Below, in pieces: positions 1-6,958 of a DNA stretch of 12,915 nt. A program made the translations under genes and the position numbers. A model generated the notes under the pieces. That model made no database searches and was not told where the DNA came from. It was given only the letters and a program-made list of their open reading frames with translations. The stretch spans positions 1-12,915 of the forward strand of contig CAZHCL010000017.1 of the NCBI GenBank assembly GCA_964530955.1. Reading direction: 5' to 3'. Each line of letters begins with the position of its first letter. Within the stretch, counting starts at the first letter, position 1. Source of the DNA: Candidatus Woesearchaeota archaeon. GTDB taxonomy: Archaea > Nanobdellota > Nanobdellia > Pacearchaeales > GW2011-AR1.

Positions 1-27
1 AACGCAGTACCATTGTGCCACGTGCGC
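1..27 (-). tRNA. 5' fragment of a tRNA, truncated by the window edge; isotype not determinable (GCG start and D-arm compatible with tRNA-Gly)
   Basis: Reverse complement reads GCGCACG-TG-GCA-CAATGGTAC-TGC-G-TT: 7-nt acceptor strand, U8, 3-bp D-stem GCA/TGC with a TGGT D-loop. The anticodon lies outside the window. TTTAAATA box on the minus strand at 88-95. Confidence 0.75.
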
Positions 28-208
28 ATCTCTCTGCAAAAACATATAGAATGTCTCTGCACAGACACAATTCAATAATAAAATGCTTATTTAAAGATTT
101 AGGAATAAGTAAAATGAAGATAATTTTATCTATAAAAAGCACCTAGATAATGGATTATAACTATTAAAAAACACAATCATATATAAATAAAAAAATAAGA
201 GATAAAGA

Positions 209-2035
209 ATGACAGGACAATGTCTGCCATCACAAAGGCTTAGGCAGAAGATAGTTAAAGGAGAGATAAAAGTAGAAAATATTTCTTTAGCTAAAGATGA
301 AAAAGGATGGTTTTCAAACACAGATCTTGAATCAAGAATACAACCAGCTTCATTTGAGCCAACAATTGGTGATGAATTATATATTTTAGATACGGAGCTA
401 CTTGGAGGTTTTAGACCAGGAAATAATGAGACTGTACGCCGTTCTCTTCTTAGGCTACCACAAAGACAAAGACTGAAAGTTCAAATTGACAGTTCGGGCT
501 TTGAATTAAAAACGGGCTTTACTTACCTCTTTCCGCTTGAAGAAAGAATTAGCTTAAAAGAAGGAGAAAGAGTAGAATCCTCGCCAAAAAGTAGTACTGG
601 AAGAGTTTTTCTAAGAACTCGCATGTTGGCTGATTGTAATCCTACCTACGAAGAAATACATTATTCTGAAGGATGTAGTAATTTTTTACAGCCTTGGCTT
701 TTGGTACAACCTCTTACATTTAACACAATCATAAGACCTGGAGATTCTCTAAATCAATTAAGATTTTTTGAAGGAGATAACGCAATGCTGACTTCATCTG
801 AAATAAGAATGGAAATGGAAAAGCACCCTATTGTAAGAAAAAAGGGTGAAAATGAAAAAGTAAAACCCAATATTACTGATGGCATTCAAATCCACGCAGA
901 TTTTACGGGGGAAAATATGGAAGGAATAGTGGGTCTACGTGCAAGAAGAAATCCCCTGCCAATTGACCTAAGAAAGATTGGAGTTTATGATGCAGAAAAC
1001 TACTTTGAACCTATAGTAATAAGAGATGGTAAAGTAGAAATAAAGAGAGGAGAGCATTACCTATTAACCTCTGCAGAAGTTCTTTCTATACCTCCTCATC
1101 TAAGTGTTCAATTAAAAAGGCACTCAATTATAGGTCTTTCAGGACCAGTAGATTTCGCTGGATTTATAGACAATGGATTTGAGGGAGATTTAGTATTTGA
1201 GTTAAGATCAGACGAACCAAGAAACATTACCGCAGAAGCAGGATTATTGCCTGTAAGTAAACTTGAAATTTTCAGGTCAGAAGTGCCTGATAAAATCTAT
1301 GGAAAAAGCATTGGATCGAGCTATCAACAACAAACAGGAATAAGGCCTGCAAAAGGTTTCAGGAAGTTTGATTATGGACTTGCAGCGAGAAATTATGCTA
1401 AACTTAACAGAGATGTTTTGGTTATGGATGCAAAAGATATTTTGAAGCATCATCAAACAAAGGAACCATTTTCTTGGATATCTGAAGCAGAAGGCAAAAA
1501 TCTATTAAATTGTATAAAAGAAGGATTTTTCCATTCAAGATATGATTGTGAATCGGATGAAATGATTCTGCAGCCAATACCCTATGTCCTAATTTTGGGA
1601 GAAGGAGGAAAAATATTCTCCTACGTAAGATCAAAGGAAATAAAAGATTATGGAGATACGAGATTATTTGGAAAACATTCAATAGGATTAGGAGGGCATA
1701 TACAAAGAAAAGATGCTCCAGACTATATTGAAAGATGTCTTTCAAGAGAAATAGGTGAAGAAGTAAATATCCACGGAAAATCTTCTCCACCAAAACTAAT
1801 TGGCACATTAATGGCCTACGACAAACCAGTAGACCGAGTTCACTTCGGACTTGTTTACGTTATCCCTCTTGCTAAAAGAGGCTACGTAGCTCCAAAAGAA
1901 GCTTCAATCATTACAGGAAGAATGATTTCTTTAGATGAAATCGAAAAGGATAGGCAAGCACATGAAAAATACGAAACCTGGAGCAATAAATTACTCCCTC
2001 TTCTTCCAGAGATATACTCAAGGACATTCAAATAA
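209..2035 (+). CDS. dcd: dCTP deaminase (duplicated-domain DCD type) fused to a C-terminal NUDIX-family phosphoesterase
   Basis: IQPASF, PKSSTGR, GFIDNGFEG..VFELRS and YG..IGSSYQ.Q motifs match the long DCD_N/DCD_C dCTP deaminase family. The C-terminal ~200 aa has QPIPY, R..GKHSIGLGGH, REIGEEV and VDRVHFGLV, typical of the COG4112-like NUDIX phosphoesterase. TATAAATA at 182-189. Confidence 0.85.
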   Translation: MTGQCLPSQRLRQKIVKGEIKVENISLAKDEKGWFSNTDLESRIQPASFEPTIGDELYILDTELLGGFRPGNNETVRRSLLRLPQRQRLKVQIDSSGFELKTGFTYLFPLEERISLKEGERVESSPKSSTGRVFLRTRMLADCNPTYEEIHYSEGCSNFLQPWLLVQPLTFNTIIRPGDSLNQLRFFEGDNAMLTSSEIRMEMEKHPIVRKKGENEKVKPNITDGIQIHADFTGENMEGIVGLRARRNPLPIDLRKIGVYDAENYFEPIVIRDGKVEIKRGEHYLLTSAEVLSIPPHLSVQLKRHSIIGLSGPVDFAGFIDNGFEGDLVFELRSDEPRNITAEAGLLPVSKLEIFRSEVPDKIYGKSIGSSYQQQTGIRPAKGFRKFDYGLAARNYAKLNRDVLVMDAKDILKHHQTKEPFSWISEAEGKNLLNCIKEGFFHSRYDCESDEMILQPIPYVLILGEGGKIFSYVRSKEIKDYGDTRLFGKHSIGLGGHIQRKDAPDYIERCLSREIGEEVNIHGKSSPPKLIGTLMAYDKPVDRVHFGLVYVIPLAKRGYVAPKEASIITGRMISLDEIEKDRQAHEKYETWSNKLLPLLPEIYSRTFK

Positions 2036-2039
2036 AGAG

Positions 2040-2114
2040 CGCCCCCGACAGGATTTGAACCTGCGACCCTCAGATTAGAAGTCTGATGCTCTATCCAGGC
2101 TGAGCTACGGGGGC
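2040..2114 (-). tRNA. tRNA-Arg(UCU), no encoded CCA, no intron
   Basis: Reverse complement GCCCCCG..TCAGA-CTTCTAA-TCTGA..GGTTCAAATCC..CGGGGGC-G folds as a full cloverleaf with anticodon TCT. Confidence 0.96.
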
Positions 2115-2138
2115 TTACAAATGAGACAAAAATTACTT

Positions 2139-2146
2139 ATTTAAAA
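2139..2146 (-). promoter_or_regulatory. TATA box of tRNA-Arg
   Basis: TTTAAATA on the minus strand, 25-32 nt upstream of the tRNA 5' end. Confidence 0.65.
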
Positions 2147-2174
2147 GTTCCCCTTGGAAGAAATTATAGAAAAA

Positions 2175-2489
2175 CTAACCGCCTAAATCAAAATTTATTA
2201 TCTTTCTTTTAAAAGGATGGCTTTCAGAGTTATAATCACTTAGAAAATCTTTCTCTCTATGTTTCTTGAAATGGTTAAAAACAAATGCAAGAACAAGAAT
2301 GAACACAAAAAAAGACAGCCAAAAAACAAGAAAGTTCTGGTTTATAGGCTCAGAAGTGGTTCTGTAATTAACTGGATTGGAAAAAGTTACAAAGCCCAAT
2401 ATACTTCCATACCTCAGCACAGCTATACTAGCCATTATACCAGCAAATAAGATAAGCAAAACAAAGAAGCTTATCACCTTCCTTTTCAT
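2175..2489 (-). CDS. small hypothetical membrane protein (104 aa)
   Basis: ATG start, two strongly hydrophobic segments (aa ~6-35 and ~53-73), TTTATAAG box ~25 nt upstream. No family recognised. Confidence 0.65.
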   Translation of the reverse strand: MKRKVISFFVLLILFAGIMASIAVLRYGSILGFVTFSNPVNYRTTSEPINQNFLVFWLSFFVFILVLAFVFNHFKKHREKDFLSDYNSESHPFKRKIINFDLGG

Positions 2490-2569
2490 ATTGTGAAAAG
2501 GGAGCCTATTCTTATAAATGTTGCCCCAGAATTAGGAATCTATTTAAACAAGATTTCATACTTAGCGAT

Positions 2570-3469
2570 ATGGAAAAGGTAAATTTAACTTTTTTAGGTA
2601 CTGGAAACGCAATCCCTACTGAGAAAAGAAATCATACAGGAATATTAATGAATTTCAAGGATGAATCTCTGTTATTTGACTGCGGAGAGGGAATCCAAAG
2701 GCAGTTCAAAATAGCAGGAATTTCTCCTTCGAAGTTAACAAGATTATTCATAACCCATTGGCATGGAGACCACATTCTAGGTCTTCCCGGTTTATTTCAA
2801 ACACTTGCAATGTCAAATTATAATAAAAAGCTTAGAATATACGGTCCATTAGGAACAAAAAGGTTCATCGCAGTAATACAAGAGCTGCTGATGCACATAA
2901 ACATTAATTTAGAAGTTCATGAATTTACAGAAGGAGTGGTTGTGGATGAAAAAGAGTTCAGAGTTGAAGCTAAAGCAATGTCTCACGGAATTCCAAGCCT
3001 TGCTTACTCTTTGATTATAAAAGAAAAAGTAAGACTTAAAAAAGATAAATTGAAAAAACTAAAGCTTCCAAATTCTCCACTCATAAGAAAACTTATTCAG
3101 GGAGAGGATATAATATTCAATAAAAAGAAAATAAAAGCCTCCCAGATTATTTGGAAAGAACCGCAGAAAAAAATAACTCTTGTCCTAGATACAAAGATGA
3201 ATAATAAAGCAATAGAATTGGCAAAAGATGCAGATTTGCTTATAGCTGAATCAACTTTCTCAGAAAGCGAAGCTGAAAAAGCGGCAGAATATAATCATCT
3301 AACTGCAAAAGACGCAGCAACAATAGCAAAAAAAGCAAAAGCAAAAGCACTTATTATAACTCATATTTCCCAGAGATATGAACATAACCTCCAAGCAATA
3401 GAAAAAGAAGCAAGAAAAACTTTCAAAAATACAAGAATTGCAAAAGATTTTGATTCTTTAGAATTATAA
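2570..3469 (+). CDS. rnz: ribonuclease Z (tRNA 3'-processing, metallo-beta-lactamase fold)
   Basis: LTFLGTG, FDCGEG.QRQ, THWHGDHILGL, D.LIAESTF, HLTA and THISQRY motifs. Confidence 0.97.
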   Translation: MEKVNLTFLGTGNAIPTEKRNHTGILMNFKDESLLFDCGEGIQRQFKIAGISPSKLTRLFITHWHGDHILGLPGLFQTLAMSNYNKKLRIYGPLGTKRFIAVIQELLMHININLEVHEFTEGVVVDEKEFRVEAKAMSHGIPSLAYSLIIKEKVRLKKDKLKKLKLPNSPLIRKLIQGEDIIFNKKKIKASQIIWKEPQKKITLVLDTKMNNKAIELAKDADLLIAESTFSESEAEKAAEYNHLTAKDAATIAKKAKAKALIITHISQRYEHNLQAIEKEARKTFKNTRIAKDFDSLEL

Positions 3470-3480
3470 AAAAAATAAAA

Positions 3481-3729
3481 TTATTTCTTCAAACTTGTTG
3501 AAGCAGGAGAAATATAAATGATAGTATCTCCTCTTAGAAAAGTTAATCCTATATTTTTCTTTACCTGTCCATCCTGCATTTCCTTCGCATTATCAAGAAC
3601 AACATTAATATGTATATCAAAAGCCGCAAGAGTACCAACAAACTGCTTCTCTCCCTTTAATTGCACTAAAACTTCCTTTCCCTTTGATGCATTCAAAAGG
3701 TCAAGTGGTCTCTCAATTCCATTTGTCAT
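3481..3729 (-). CDS. lsm: Sm-like archaeal protein (SmAP/Lsm, snRNP-type)
   Basis: RPLDLL..SKGK.V.V.LK....GTL.AFD.HINVVL and LRGDTIIYISP (Sm1/Sm2 motifs). The ATG at 3729 is preferred over the track's TTG at 3741 because TTTAAATA (3751-3758) lies 22-29 nt upstream of it. Confidence 0.93.
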   Translation of the reverse strand: MTNGIERPLDLLNASKGKEVLVQLKGEKQFVGTLAAFDIHINVVLDNAKEMQDGQVKKNIGLTFLRGDTIIYISPASTSLKK

Positions 3730-3750
3730 AATTCTTTTCAACTCTCAGCA

Positions 3751-3758
3751 TATTTAAA
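3751..3758 (-). promoter_or_regulatory. TATA box of lsm, 5 nt from the transposon target duplication
   Basis: TTTAAATA on the minus strand, 22-29 nt upstream of the ATG at 3729. Confidence 0.7.
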
Positions 3759-3762
3759 TGTA

Positions 3763-3771
3763 TCGCTGGAT
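3763..3771 (+). repeat. left target-site duplication TCGCTGGAT
   Basis: Exact 9-bp direct copy at 9767-9775; both copies directly abut the inverted ends. Confidence 0.9.
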
Positions 3772-3796
3772 GGGAGTGTCTAACTTGCGTGGCTTT
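3772..3796 (+). repeat. left terminal inverted repeat GGGAGTGTC-TAACTTG-CGTGGCTTT
   Basis: Matches the reverse complement of 9742-9766 in two blocks. The outer block resembles IS6-family termini (IS26 begins GGCACTGTT). Confidence 0.88.
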
Positions 3797-5039
3797 CTAT
3801 CATTTTCTCCTCACGTGTCAAGTTCGTGGCTTTTTCTTGTTTAATTGATTGTAATAACATAGCATTCCATCTGTTTCCATTAACGCCAATTCCACATTTA
3901 TCCGCAGGGGTTAGCTTTTGTCTTGCAGATTTTCTTATAAAATTATGAAAAACTTTAAAGCCATCTTGATAGGTTTGAGTTTCTGTTACTCCTCTTCTAA
4001 TCTTATGAAATTCTTTCTGATGGGAATGATGAGATTCTATTGCATTGTTATTGACTATTTTTCTTTTACCCATTATTGTGGTAAATTTAACTTTCCGTTC
4101 ATTACCCCAATTTCTAAAAGTCTTTCTACATCCATCTTGATAACAAGGGTTACCATCAACTATAATTTGATATGGTATTTTTCCGTTCTGTTTTAATGCC
4201 TCTGTGAAAACCTTTTGTGCGTCTTTGCTATTTCTACTTCTGCCTGAATTGATAGAAGCAAGTAAGAATTTAGTTTTATTATCCATTACATTCCAGACAT
4301 AATCATATTCCTTATTTTGATTGTTCTTATTTTTCCTATCTATTCCTCTCTTGCTTAAAACAAGTGTTTCATCTGCATTCCATACATTACTTTGAGTTTG
4401 TGGTTTGATTGTTTCGCTATATTTTTCCATAGTTTGTGAAAATCTTAAAACCCAACTTCTTATAGTTTCGTGAGAAAGTTTTAATCCATAAAATTGTTGA
4501 AATTGGTCGCTTATGTCTCTATAACTTAATCCCTTATAGTAGCAGTCCATAGCAAGGCAAACAAGTTTAGTGTTTCCTTTAATCTGTTTGATTGGCTCTA
4601 AAATAAATCTTCTTTTACAATCCTTACAACAGAATAATTGTTTAAATCCGAGTTTAGTCTTACGTGTGCCTCTCTTAAACAGCTGTTCAGAGGCACAGTA
4701 AGGACAATTATCTCTTTTTTGTCCCTCAATTATTAACTCTACTTCTTTCTCTACTTGTGGCTCTACTTCATATTTTGCCTTAACCTTTTTAAATAATAAA
4801 ATAGCCTTAATGTGTTTGCAATAGAGATTTTTACCCAGACATCTTCTCTTAAAGTCTTCACACTCACAAGCATAACTATCTAAGTGTGTTACTCTATACT
4901 TTTTATGACTATCAAATTGAGATGGAACTAAATAAGTAAACTCATCTAATATTTGAGGGTTGCCTTTCTCTAAGATAATCTCTGCTCGTTTATTTCTCCA
5001 TTCAGAGAAGTTTTTAAGATATTGTGCTGTGTTTTCCAT
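3780..5039 (-). CDS. IS6/IS240-like DDE transposase with N-terminal SWIM zinc finger, C4 zinc ribbon and HTH
   Basis: SWIM C58-x-C60...C74-x-H76. Ribbon C112xxC115...C138xxC141. HTH GLSYRDIS...SHETIRSWV. Catalytic WNAD223E, IIVD295G and NNNAIE335S, plus YVWNVMD. The stop codon lies inside the left inverted repeat. Confidence 0.9.
   Translation of the reverse strand: MENTAQYLKNFSEWRNKRAEIILEKGNPQILDEFTYLVPSQFDSHKKYRVTHLDSYACECEDFKRRCLGKNLYCKHIKAILLFKKVKAKYEVEPQVEKEVELIIEGQKRDNCPYCASEQLFKRGTRKTKLGFKQLFCCKDCKRRFILEPIKQIKGNTKLVCLAMDCYYKGLSYRDISDQFQQFYGLKLSHETIRSWVLRFSQTMEKYSETIKPQTQSNVWNADETLVLSKRGIDRKNKNNQNKEYDYVWNVMDNKTKFLLASINSGRSRNSKDAQKVFTEALKQNGKIPYQIIVDGNPCYQDGCRKTFRNWGNERKVKFTTIMGKRKIVNNNAIESHHSHQKEFHKIRRGVTETQTYQDGFKVFHNFIRKSARQKLTPADKCGIGVNGNRWNAMLLQSIKQEKATNLTREEKMIESHAS
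3815..3833 (+). repeat. internal copy of the end motif (GTGTC-AAGTT-CGTGGCTTT) inside the transposase 3' coding region
   Basis: Same two conserved blocks as the terminal repeat, with a 5-nt spacer. Confidence 0.8.
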
Positions 5040-5046
5040 AATATAC

Positions 5047-5084
5047 TTAGGTGCCCGAAGTATATAAACATTTCGGTGCCCTAA
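5047..5084 (-). promoter_or_regulatory. transposase promoter: TATA (5061-5068) flanked by two 13-bp palindromic operators (5047-5059, 5072-5084)
   Basis: TTAGG-TGC-CCGAA and TTCGG-TGC-CCTAA, 25 bp apart, around TTTATATA (minus strand). Confidence 0.8.
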
Positions 5085-5108
5085 ATATATAATGCAGAAA
5101 TGTTTATA

Positions 5109-5159
5109 AGTCCTTAATTACTCACTTATAAGATATTAAATAGTGATTAAATAAGGACT
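5109..5159. promoter_or_regulatory. 51-bp imperfect palindrome directly upstream of the RHH gene (putative operator)
   Basis: Arms 5109-5126 (AGTCCTTAATTACTCACT) and 5142-5159 (AGTGATTAAATAAGGACT) pair at 16/18 positions without gaps, around a 15-nt AT-rich spacer. Confidence 0.65.
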
Positions 5160-5306
5160 ATGCAAAAACAGATTAAAATAACAGTTTCAGAAAAGCTTTA
5201 TAAAATCATAGAAACTAAAGCTAAGAGTATGGGCACAAAGACATCTACTTATTGTTATAACATCGTTTTTTCAGATGTAAAAAAAGAGGCAGATAAAAAT
5301 GATTGA
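5160..5306 (+). CDS. ribbon-helix-helix (CopG/Arc-like) DNA-binding protein, 48 aa, absent from the ORF track
   Basis: Hand translation: MQKQIKITVSEKLYKIIETKAKSMGTKTSTYCYNIVFSDVKKEADKND. Alternating beta-strand, helix A ending in G, then helix B. The stop overlaps the next start (ATGATTGA). Confidence 0.8.
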   Translation: MQKQIKITVSEKLYKIIETKAKSMGTKTSTYCYNIVFSDVKKEADKND

Positions 5307-5946
5307 AATTTTAAGTTCGATATACACTTTTTGGGGTTATATAGATGACGCCAATTATTTAAGAAAATTATTCAAGGTTATAGGTAAGTGGTTTAGTTTT
5401 CTTAAATGGTATTGGAAAAATCCAGAAATTCAAATAAAATATTCCAGACTTATTACTTGTCAATATGAGAAAAATACAATAAATAGCATACATACTACTC
5501 TAATAAATAAAAAAAAGAAATTTAGTGATGGTTTTAGCAAATCAAACAATCAAATGCAGTTTGAGATTGAAAATTCTAAGCTTAATTATCGCATAACGGT
5601 TGATAGAGTTAATCAGGAACAACAGAATATTTTATTTGAGAATAAGTATCTTTCTTTTTATCCTCTTAGAAAATTCAAGAGTTTAAACGCAATCACTAAT
5701 GAATTTAATGAAATATACGAAATAATATCAAATCCTCTATCTATTGAAAATAATAATAAGATTATTACGGTTGATGTTAAAGAGATAGATAACTCAAATA
5801 AAGAACAGATTAAGTTTGTAAAATCAAATGCTCAAATATCTTTTAAAGGCAACAGAATCCAAATAAAAAACTTTAATGGCACAGAACATGGAGAATTTTT
5901 ACTTTTCTTTATTATGAAATGGCTTACCGAATATAGAACGTCCTAA
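5299..5946 (+). CDS. hypothetical protein (215 aa), transposon cargo
   Basis: Long ORF in very AT-rich DNA, translationally coupled to the RHH gene. Aromatic/Trp-rich N-terminal helix. No family recognised. Confidence 0.7.
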   Translation: MIEILSSIYTFWGYIDDANYLRKLFKVIGKWFSFLKWYWKNPEIQIKYSRLITCQYEKNTINSIHTTLINKKKKFSDGFSKSNNQMQFEIENSKLNYRITVDRVNQEQQNILFENKYLSFYPLRKFKSLNAITNEFNEIYEIISNPLSIENNNKIITVDVKEIDNSNKEQIKFVKSNAQISFKGNRIQIKNFNGTEHGEFLLFFIMKWLTEYRTS

Positions 5947-6710
5947 TCCTCTATCCAATCTGTTAAAGGTTTTAGTTGGTCAATCAGTTTTTCAGGTATT
6001 TTTTCTTGATAATTTGAATAGGGGAGAAATGTTTTTACTATCTCTTTGTTTAGTATCAATTCATCTTTAAAATCTTTCATCTTTGTTTTACATAACAATG
6101 TGCCTTCTAAGTAAATAGCTACTTTTAGAGTATACCCAAAACTACTTACAAATTCTACACCTATGCCCATTCTATCATCAGGATTATCAACAAAATCATC
6201 ATCGTCATCAATTTCGTGACCGAATTGTCCAGAATATTGTATTTTGCCATCAAATCTAACACCATTAAACCATACATTCTGAAATATGCCTTTCTGTTTA
6301 GCTTCTAATACTTTTTGAGGTATAAAAAGAACAGAACCAATCTTGCCCGATTCTCCAAATAATACATTGCTTAAAATCTCTATCCCAAACAGTTTAGCTC
6401 TATCTTTTGAAGTAAAGCTTATGATTTTCAAATCTGGAAATATGATAAAATTAACTTCATCGTATAAAAAAGCTTCATTTGGCTTCTTTTCAATTTCAAA
6501 CTCATCATCAATATTGAACAAAAAGTCATCAAAACTTCTTTTAACTGCTATCTTTCCATAAACATAACCGTCATCTTTATCACTTATTATAAAATTACCT
6601 ATTGTAAAATTATTAACTTTAGGTATTTTAAGAGTTTGAGAAATATTTTTGAGAGCATACACTATTTGGTCTTTAGTTAAACTTCCTTCATATTTTGATA
6701 TGAATGCCAT
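5943..6710 (-). CDS. hypothetical protein (255 aa), transposon cargo
   Basis: Long ORF with its own TTTATATC box (6731-6738) 21-28 nt upstream. Acidic stretch EIDDDDDFVDNPDD. Convergent 4-nt overlap with the 215-aa gene. Confidence 0.75.
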   Translation of the reverse strand: MAFISKYEGSLTKDQIVYALKNISQTLKIPKVNNFTIGNFIISDKDDGYVYGKIAVKRSFDDFLFNIDDEFEIEKKPNEAFLYDEVNFIIFPDLKIISFTSKDRAKLFGIEILSNVLFGESGKIGSVLFIPQKVLEAKQKGIFQNVWFNGVRFDGKIQYSGQFGHEIDDDDDFVDNPDDRMGIGVEFVSSFGYTLKVAIYLEGTLLCKTKMKDFKDELILNKEIVKTFLPYSNYQEKIPEKLIDQLKPLTDWIED

Positions 6711-6740
6711 AAAAATGCCAGACAGTATACGATATAAACC

Positions 6741-6911
6741 TTATTCTTTCTTCTTATCTTCTTCTATGATAATTTTATTATTCTTAGTAGTGATTTTTAG
6801 TTCTTTGCCTATTAAACCAGATTCTTCGGCTACTGCTTTCGGCAAAGGTGCCCTAAACTTATAATATTCGGTTTTACCTACGGTCTTATCATACGTCTCT
6901 ATTATTTTCAT
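6741..6911 (-). CDS. AbrB/MazE/SpoVT-like DNA-binding protein, 56 aa, absent from the ORF track
   Basis: Hand translation: MKIIETYDKTVGKTEYYKFRAPLPKAVAEESGLIGKELKITTKNNKIIIEEDKKKE. The LPK..AE..GL.G.EL.I....NKIII pattern fits the swapped-hairpin fold. TATA-like CTTAAATA 22-29 nt upstream. Confidence 0.82.
   Translation of the reverse strand: MKIIETYDKTVGKTEYYKFRAPLPKAVAEESGLIGKELKITTKNNKIIIEEDKKKE
6844..6856. promoter_or_regulatory. fifth operator-like copy (AAAGG-TGC-CCTAA) inside the AbrB-like gene
   Basis: 11/13 match to TTAGG-TGC-CCTAA; lies exactly 75 bp (3 x 25) from the 6919 copy. Confidence 0.5.
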
Positions 6912-6918
6912 AAGATAA

Positions 6919-6956
6919 TTAGGTGCCCTAACTATTTAAGTCTTTAGGTGCCCGAT
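6919..6956 (-). promoter_or_regulatory. AbrB-like gene promoter: TATA (6933-6940) flanked by two 13-bp palindromic operators (6919-6931, 6944-6956)
   Basis: TTAGG-TGC-CCTAA (perfect arms) and TTAGG-TGC-CCGAT, 25 bp apart. Offsets from the ATG are identical to those at the transposase promoter. Confidence 0.82.
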
Positions 6957-6958
6957 AA

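Follow-up and report, generated by a model that had tools for sequence, protein, structure and literature searches.

A SWIM-bearing, IS6-like archaeal transposase appears to drive a family of restriction-modification transposons that land upstream of TATA boxes

In transposases, the SWIM zinc finger is known from eukaryotic Mutator-type elements (MULEs, with FHY3/FAR1 as relatives), which generate 9-bp target-site duplications, prefer the 5′ ends of genes and frequently capture cargo. The same features, together with a DDE catalytic domain and a SWIM finger, are found at an archaeal locus within a stretch of 12,915 nucleotides from a Candidatus Woesearchaeota archaeon (contig CAZHCL010000017.1, positions 1 to 12,915; hereafter the window). 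Unlike in MULEs, where the SWIM finger is C-terminal to an IS256/Mutator-type core, the finger here is N-terminal and the core is IS6-like. Judged by comparative sequence analysis, the transposase gene of this locus drives a unit transposon of 5,995 bp, and the host is a DPANN archaeon with a small genome. We consider it quite probable that a transposase of four modules, a cargo of restriction-modification (RM) genes, a fixed landing position upstream of TATA boxes and the division of labour proposed below together describe the element correctly.

Published IS6 members are mostly 213–254 aa long and belong to simple insertion sequences (ISs) of 0.7–0.9 kb with 8-bp duplications. A zinc-finger extension occurs only in Clostridial clades, one of which, the ISTet2 group (453 aa), adds another 100 aa of unknown function, and ISDsp3 is the only IS6 member on record as carrying a passenger gene (PMC7986276, PMC6807381). 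An earlier reading made from the DNA letters alone (the sequence-only reading) had called the 419-aa architecture of the present transposase atypical for IS6, and these published sizes agree with it. The Clostridial clades resemble the present family in having a helix-turn-helix (HTH) together with an IS240-type DDE domain, a stop codon inside the inverted end and an N-terminal zinc finger, and clade i/VIII also resembles it in having a further N-terminal module. However, these are bacterial simple ISs of 1.2–1.8 kb with 8-bp duplications, whereas the present family is archaeal, carries cargo in all bounded elements and is TATA-targeted. Where IS6 duplications measure 8 bp (PMC7986276), those of the window and of 32 bounded relatives are perfect and measure 9 bp; where IS6 elements are simple, of ~0.8 kb (up to 1.8 kb) with ends starting GG, those of the present family span 2.3–7.1 kb, hold cargo and have ends starting G[AG]GAGTGT.

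RM units bordered by imperfect inverted repeats and by 8-bp duplications are known from bacteria; in one, a type IIG gene is accompanied by the remains of a transposase (Furuta, Abe and Kobayashi 2010, PMC2853133). Those are isolated cases, mostly without an intact transposase and with no target rule noted, in contrast to the large archaeal family described here, with its autonomous transposase and defined promoter target. Literature searches returned no description of this archaeal family, nor of TATA-guided transposition.

The element of the window occupies positions 3772–9766, boundaries that were set because the duplication TCGCTGGAT sits directly outside the inverted ends at both junctions. 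These 26-bp ends are imperfect, matching at 18 of 26 positions without gaps; they start G[GA]GAGTGTC, and each carries two copies of an 8-bp subterminal motif (Table 1). No inverted repeats were found directly flanking the 1.26-kb transposase gene. The distal end instead lies 4.7 kb past the gene, beyond the cargo, and the simple 1.3-kb IS implied by the sequence-only reading had to be abandoned. At the transposase-proximal junction the order is element end, 9-bp duplication, 4-nt spacer and the TATA box of an LSm gene. Empty sites exist in five genomes of the same genus, where the order RNaseZ-LSm-S8e-TFB-NAD kinase is accompanied by an LSm-S8e spacer of ~100–420 nt, compared with ~6 kb in the window, and where the LSm TATA box is also present.

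The transposase is conserved at 66–80% identity across many genomes, mostly in single-contig clusters, and occurs once in its 761-kb source genome (83% complete), as might be expected of a domesticated, immobile host gene. The high conservation led us to examine domestication, and we now give it next to no credence: gene neighbourhoods of the homologues differ, full-length copies are patchily distributed among the genomes of the genus, relatives retain empty sites, intact inverted ends with perfect duplications delimit 32 elements, and one member has moved recently (see below). Same-genus genomes also contain decaying copies, one of full length with a single TGA (G013:C88:2571-3755) and one reduced to a 54-residue C-terminal fragment (G007:C33:733-897). 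IS6 elements use a replicative cointegrate mechanism; neither cointegrates nor copies in direct repeat were observed here, and the element is single-copy in the source genome.

An ungapped search for inverted repeats with duplications was swamped by AT-rich noise and missed the ends in the window itself; a search for the conserved end motif was used instead. It yielded 32 bounded elements, 14 from genome contigs, 16 from 80 metagenome loci and 2 with an insert beside a truncated transposase gene. All 32 have perfect 9-bp duplications, and their sizes range from 2,348 to 7,084 bp; none of the bounded elements is thus without cargo. The ends extend over ~26 bp with subterminal repeats, and the cargo occupies the DNA from the distal end to the promoter of the transposase gene. 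Most cargo consists of RM or defence genes, including type IIG, type III and AlwI-type systems, and further examples encode Dam-, Dcm- and EcoRI-like methyltransferases, GmrSD-HNH, and Fic, RelA/SpoT and EVE proteins. One 4,117-bp member is 100% identical at two sites in metagenome contigs (L138/L140 and L139), where its duplications are TCGTTGAGG and GTTATTGTA; identity at two sites with different duplications indicates recent movement of the whole unit. At both sites, on the distal side, the duplication is followed after 4 nt by a TATA box. Among transposase copies of 396–408 aa that appeared to lack ends, a downstream end was found at 4 of 22 loci, and both ends with a 9-bp duplication at 2.

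Several variations on this arrangement were observed. In one subgroup (L067 6060-11651; L110 7844-11895; L088; L130), an insert of 0.4–0.65 kb bearing a small reverse-strand open reading frame (ORF) lies between a C-terminally truncated transposase gene (396–412 aa) and the original C-terminal codons and end; perfect 9-bp duplications are retained in these elements. A sister SWIM clade (L162 124-4971; L078 7032-9300) has ends beginning CTTAATGTC and 8-bp duplications. Its member L078, with ~44% identity, has no clear TATA box. In L162, the cargo includes a gene for a 900-aa type IIG RM enzyme, and a TATA-like box is situated 13 nt away from the element end. The ends of L164, a 378-aa SWIM relative, were searched for and not found. 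Most elements at L047-L077 have a gene of 60–88 aa immediately upstream of the transposase and divergent from it, and element-specific palindromes surround the transposase TATA box, such as GCATGC repeats in L003.

The sequence-only reading had placed the insertion 5 nt upstream of a TATA box; the adjacency stands, while the spacer is 4 nt after a 9-bp duplication, the value of 5 resulting from counting an 8-bp duplication. The same spacing recurs in the family. In the first set of sites, 12 of 14 had TTTA on one side at an offset of exactly 4 nt from the duplication, compared with 3% of intergenic positions. Because this motif had been chosen after these 14 sites were viewed, the same tests were rerun on 41 new unique sites, and every test showed strong enrichment (p 5e-10 to 3e-14). 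In the pooled elements, at least seven of eight matches to TTTAWAWA occur at the exact 4-nt offset on one side in 28 of 32, against 2.4% of intergenic positions, and the independent set alone gives 13 of 16. Thus the duplication ends 4 nt, and the element tip 13 nt, upstream of the TATA box.

A position matrix of the DNA upstream of the targeted TATA boxes shows the pattern of the archaeal B recognition element (BRE), with A at −3 in 30 of 32. An outward-reading ORF begins within 200 nt of 30 of 40 targeted TATA boxes, the modal TATA-to-ATG distance being 29 nt, the same as for LSm, and elements are found in either orientation relative to the promoter. With 9 bp duplicated, insertion leaves both the BRE and the TATA box undamaged. 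The promoter-proximal, non-disruptive insertion anticipated by the sequence-only reading is therefore a property of the family, whose sites have a fixed TATA spacing rather than a random relation to promoters. In the right flank of L066, what follows the targeted TATA box is not an ORF but an apparent 5′ portion of a tRNA gene, from which it follows that promoters of RNA genes may also be targets.

Such adjacency to TATA boxes could in principle arise without targeting, if compact, AT-rich genomes merely retain those intergenic insertions that do no harm. These genomes are gene-dense, their intergenic DNA is mostly promoters, and insertions within genes would be lost. But selection alone cannot fix a spacing, and the concentration of sites at one exact offset makes this explanation very improbable; targeting is favoured. 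Among integrating elements generally, the retrotransposon Ty3 inserts at RNA polymerase III start sites via TFIIIB, and Tf1 at RNA polymerase II promoters. The present family resembles both in sparing genes and in landing close to a landmark of the core promoter, at a constant distance. However, Ty3 and Tf1 are eukaryotic long terminal repeat retrotransposons that have integrases and known host tethers, whereas the elements here are prokaryotic DDE transposons and the landmark is an archaeal BRE/TATA.

Domain searches and invariant residues agree with the module order given by the sequence-only reading, namely SWIM, InsA-like ribbon, HTH and IS6-type DDE within 419 aa. Pfam DDE_Tnp_IS240 (PF13610) matches the window protein with 37.2 bits, above its threshold of 27. 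The NCBIfam IS6 model NF033587 aligns over positions 7–201 of 202 with residues 156–368 (E 1.4e-27), at a score of 96.8 bits that falls under its equivalog cut-off of 125. Weak Pfam zinc-ribbon matches cover residues 110–146, the IS1/IS1595 zinc-ribbon model NF050000 matches residues 112–147 at 23.7 bits (cut-off 28), and Zn_ribbon_InsA and Zn_ribbon_IS1595 matches in relatives are sub-threshold. Across 34 homologues, the ribbon cysteines C112, C115, C138 and C141 and the catalytic-core residues D223, D295, E335 and K342 are invariant. Membership of the Mutator/IS256 type was considered and rejected, the catalytic match being sub-threshold and the SWIM finger N-terminal rather than C-terminal: Pfam Transposase_mut reaches E 0.0058 (16 bits, threshold 21) only over the HTH region, residues 156–208, and the IS256 model scores 29.7 bits against 150. 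A homologue search gave 390 matches at E ≤ 0.001, of which the best 120 are ~380–460 aa long; where these 120 name a source, it is a Pacearchaeota, Nanoarchaeota or unclassified-archaeon assembly, and Woesearchaeota are among the sampled loci.

The N-terminal segment contains YLVPSQ, KYRVT, CECEDF and CKHIKAI, in which the sequence-only reading had recognized the CxC...CxH pattern of a SWIM finger. Its proposed ligands C58, C60, C74 and H76 are invariant in the alignment of 34 homologues (66–80% identity). In 66 N-terminal sequences reaching down to ~25% identity, C58 remains invariant and the other three are at least 90% conserved. The window protein itself matches Pfam SWIM (PF04434) with E 0.01 and 15.8 bits, below the gathering score of 19.6, so that of the two Pfam families named by the sequence-only reading only the catalytic one exceeds its threshold on this protein. 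When 1.8 billion representatives were searched with a profile built on residues 1–100, 244 proteins were recovered. Five divergent ones among them (363–416 aa) have SWIM above the gathering score (21.3–32.1 bits), N-terminal to a DDE_Tnp_IS240 core, and three of the five also have a sub-threshold InsA-type ribbon match. A precomputed PF04434 match is present in ~14 among the best 120 of the 390 homologues.

Structure prediction, proposed in the sequence-only reading, gave a compatible picture. An AlphaFold model of residues 1–100, built with 66 diverse sequences, has a confidence score (pLDDT) of 87 and a predicted order of long helix, three strands, short helix and long helix. Compared with 48,161 PDB representatives, it matches two SWIM proteins best, ZSWIM8 (Z 5.5, root-mean-square deviation 3.3 Å, 75 residues aligned) and Shu2 (Z 4.1, 4.3 Å, 81 residues aligned). 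This ranking came from a structure search independent of Foldseek, which found no significant match to the N-terminal model in the PDB and placed ZSWIM8 at rank 14; a profile search of PDB sequences likewise gave no match. The sub-threshold Pfam score and the Foldseek result would be expected if the CxC...CxH segment were a chance pattern or an unrelated zinc knuckle. That explanation is nevertheless highly unlikely, given ligands that are invariant across homologues, above-threshold SWIM matches in divergent relatives and SWIM proteins in first and second place among all structural comparisons. Taken together, the invariant ligands, the profile matches in relatives and the structural matches, modest as these are, mean that the assignment of this predicted domain as a real SWIM zinc finger holds.

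Two further proteins among the 244, P0125 (495 aa) and P0185 (646 aa), have eight and five tandem stretches matching the SWIM-region profile and no transposase domain, and are arrays of SWIM-like units.

Relatives of ~295 aa that lack the SWIM finger and start at the zinc ribbon occur in the same archaeal order. Their ends were not found in 1.5-kb flanks; the termini, which finish in CAACAATGCA, were identified through end fragments repeated within one genome. One such element (L177 10414-14057, in G004:C6; 3.6 kb) carries a DNA methyltransferase (N6/N4) and a 387-aa protein without assigned function; its duplication measures 8 bp, and at one of its ends a TATA box is 13 nt away. Two more have 9-bp duplications, one with a mismatch. 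Loci of this second family of cargo transposons are L177 (G004:C6), G004:C16 and C8, and G171:C42. A search of 301 genomes with the CAACAATGCA-type end motif gave 26 distinct ends, and in 12 of these a TATA box starts 14 nt past the terminus (p ~7e-17 at that offset, 3e-8 allowing any of seven offsets). A TATA box at about half of the ends is the expectation if nearly every element has one on one side.

Both kinds of transposon, with and without the SWIM finger, therefore insert next to TATA boxes at a near-fixed spacing, 13 and 14 nt respectively. This runs counter to the proposal of the sequence-only reading that the SWIM finger selects targets. SWIM fingers of solved structure, such as those of Shu2 and ZSWIM8, are used within protein complexes. 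In the present family the finger is as conserved as the catalytic core and constant across end types, as expected for contact with an invariant host component, and insertion is very precise; these features would suit a targeting module that binds TBP, TFB or RNA polymerase, or the TATA/BRE DNA itself. Yet the ~295-aa relatives are cargo transposons with 8–9-bp duplications and, at about half of their ends, a TATA box at 14 nt, and we consider such a targeting role unlikely. Because relatives without the finger share TATA-proximal insertion and RM cargo, the SWIM finger does not appear to be needed for TATA targeting and probably does not choose the target. The finger may recruit a host factor, as the sequence-only reading also suggested.

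For end recognition, 38 distinct transposases were grouped by subterminal motif (GCCAC or CTCCC type) and alignment columns were ranked by mutual information with this grouping. The top covarying columns are all either residues at the C-terminus whose codons are part of the motif or zinc ribbon residues 111–148; none lies in residues 1–100. The pattern points to the zinc ribbon as the module that reads the element ends and would give the SWIM finger an invariant partner, because the covariation concentrates in one 38-residue module.

In the division of labour that we propose, the zinc ribbon would read the subterminal repeats of the element itself and the DDE core would make joins with a 9-bp stagger. 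Recognition of the TATA region would be accounted for by the ribbon-HTH-DDE body, or by the bent, TBP-bound promoter; it is placed outside the SWIM finger because SWIM-less relatives share the targeting. The SWIM finger would contact something invariant, most likely a protein, be it a further transposase subunit or a host factor, rather than target sequence. A more specific version, towards which we remain somewhat sceptical, has the ribbon-HTH-DDE group reading a TBP-bent TATA box, or BRE/TATA, and integrating 13–14 nt upstream, with the finger of the SWIM branch tethering the transpososome to a conserved host protein (TBP/TFB, or a replication or repair factor) and thereby fixing the 9-bp stagger and the 13-nt spacing. 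In that case the group would be a DNA transposon guided by the TATA box, one that disseminates restriction-modification systems and leaves genes unbroken.

Several points weigh against this interpretation. The SWIM score of the window protein is below the Pfam threshold, the structural Z-scores for ZSWIM8 and Shu2 are modest, and the full-length AlphaFold model is poor (pLDDT 50) and not usable for inter-domain contacts. The covariation is confounded by shared ancestry, and the function given to the SWIM finger is reached by exclusion only. The SWIM-less ends were gathered with a single end motif and only three of these elements are bounded; moreover, their 14-nt spacing differs from the 13 nt of the SWIM family, and the finger could tune insertion geometry in this way.

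The features of the window are collected in Table 1. Its cargo includes two small genes with sub-threshold matches to regulator families. The heptamer GGTGCCC is present five times in the window (5050–5081 and 6847–6953), where chance would give 0.2 copies. One copy stands on either side of the transposase TATA box, and the other three are grouped at the promoter and start of the 56-aa AbrB/MazE-like gene. Both of the promoters that bear this sequence may be controlled by a regulator encoded in the cargo.

Table 1. Positions of the transposon, its genes and its junctions in the window
Feature	Position	Strand	Remarks
TATA box of LSm gene (TTTAAATA on − strand)	3751–3758	−	4 nt beyond duplication; 29 nt upstream of LSm ATG (3729–3727)
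Target-site duplication, copy 1 (TCGCTGGAT, 9 bp)	3763–3771		
Transposase-proximal terminal inverted repeat (GGGAGTGTC...CGTGGCTT)	3772–3797	+	Transposase stop codon (3780–3782) inside
Transposase gene, 419 aa, one intact ORF	3780–5039	−	SWIM, Zn ribbon, HTH, IS6/IS240-type DDE
Two subterminal CGTGGCTT motifs	3788–3795 and 3825–3832 (3788–3832)	+	Candidate transposase-binding sites; overlap last transposase codons
DDE catalytic core	3930–4382	−	Residues ~220–370; D223, D295, E335, K342 invariant
HTH region	4416–4574	−	Residues ~156–208; NCBIfam IS6 match begins at 156; helices 157–208 in low-confidence model
IS1/InsA-type C4 zinc ribbon	4599–4712	−	Residues 110–147; probable reader of subterminal end motif
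SWIM domain	4785–4937	−	Residues 35–85; ligands C58, C60, C74, H76 encoded at 4812–4868
Transposase promoter	5047–5092		TATA box 5061–5068 (− strand) between operator-like repeats with GGTGCCC (5050–5056, 5075–5081)
Cargo: 48-aa ribbon-helix-helix (RHH)/NikA-like small gene	5160–5306	+	Pfam NikA-like E 8.7e-5, below threshold
Cargo: 215-aa protein	5299–5946	+	No Pfam family at threshold, no PADLOC match
Cargo: 255-aa protein	5943–6710	−	No Pfam or PADLOC match
Cargo: 56-aa AbrB/MazE-like small regulator	6741–6911	−	Pfam MazE_antitoxin E 0.0035, below threshold; GGTGCCC at 6847, 6922, 6947
Cargo: 903-aa type IIG RM enzyme	6959–9670	−	Pfam Eco57I, N6_Mtase, TaqI_C; PADLOC REase_MTase_IIG E 9.5e-83
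Distal terminal inverted repeat	9741–9766 (in 9716–9766)	−	Reverse complement starts GAGAGTGTCAAGG; two AAGCCACG motifs, 9716–9723 and 9743–9750
Target-site duplication, copy 2 (TCGCTGGAT, 9 bp)	9767–9775		

The N-terminal SWIM finger assigned here belongs to a prokaryotic IS6-like transposase, a domain otherwise known in transposases from eukaryotic Mutator-type elements. What it does has been narrowed: the finger appears not to read the ends and not to be required for TATA targeting, which directs attention to protein partners. The single exact landing position upstream of BRE/TATA makes the family a clear and testable example of archaeal DNA transposition guided by promoters, and a gene-sparing site combined with a cargo capacity of 2–6 kb may be of interest for an archaeal genetic tool. 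The family, large and apparently unpublished, seems to move RM and other defence genes between tiny DPANN genomes.

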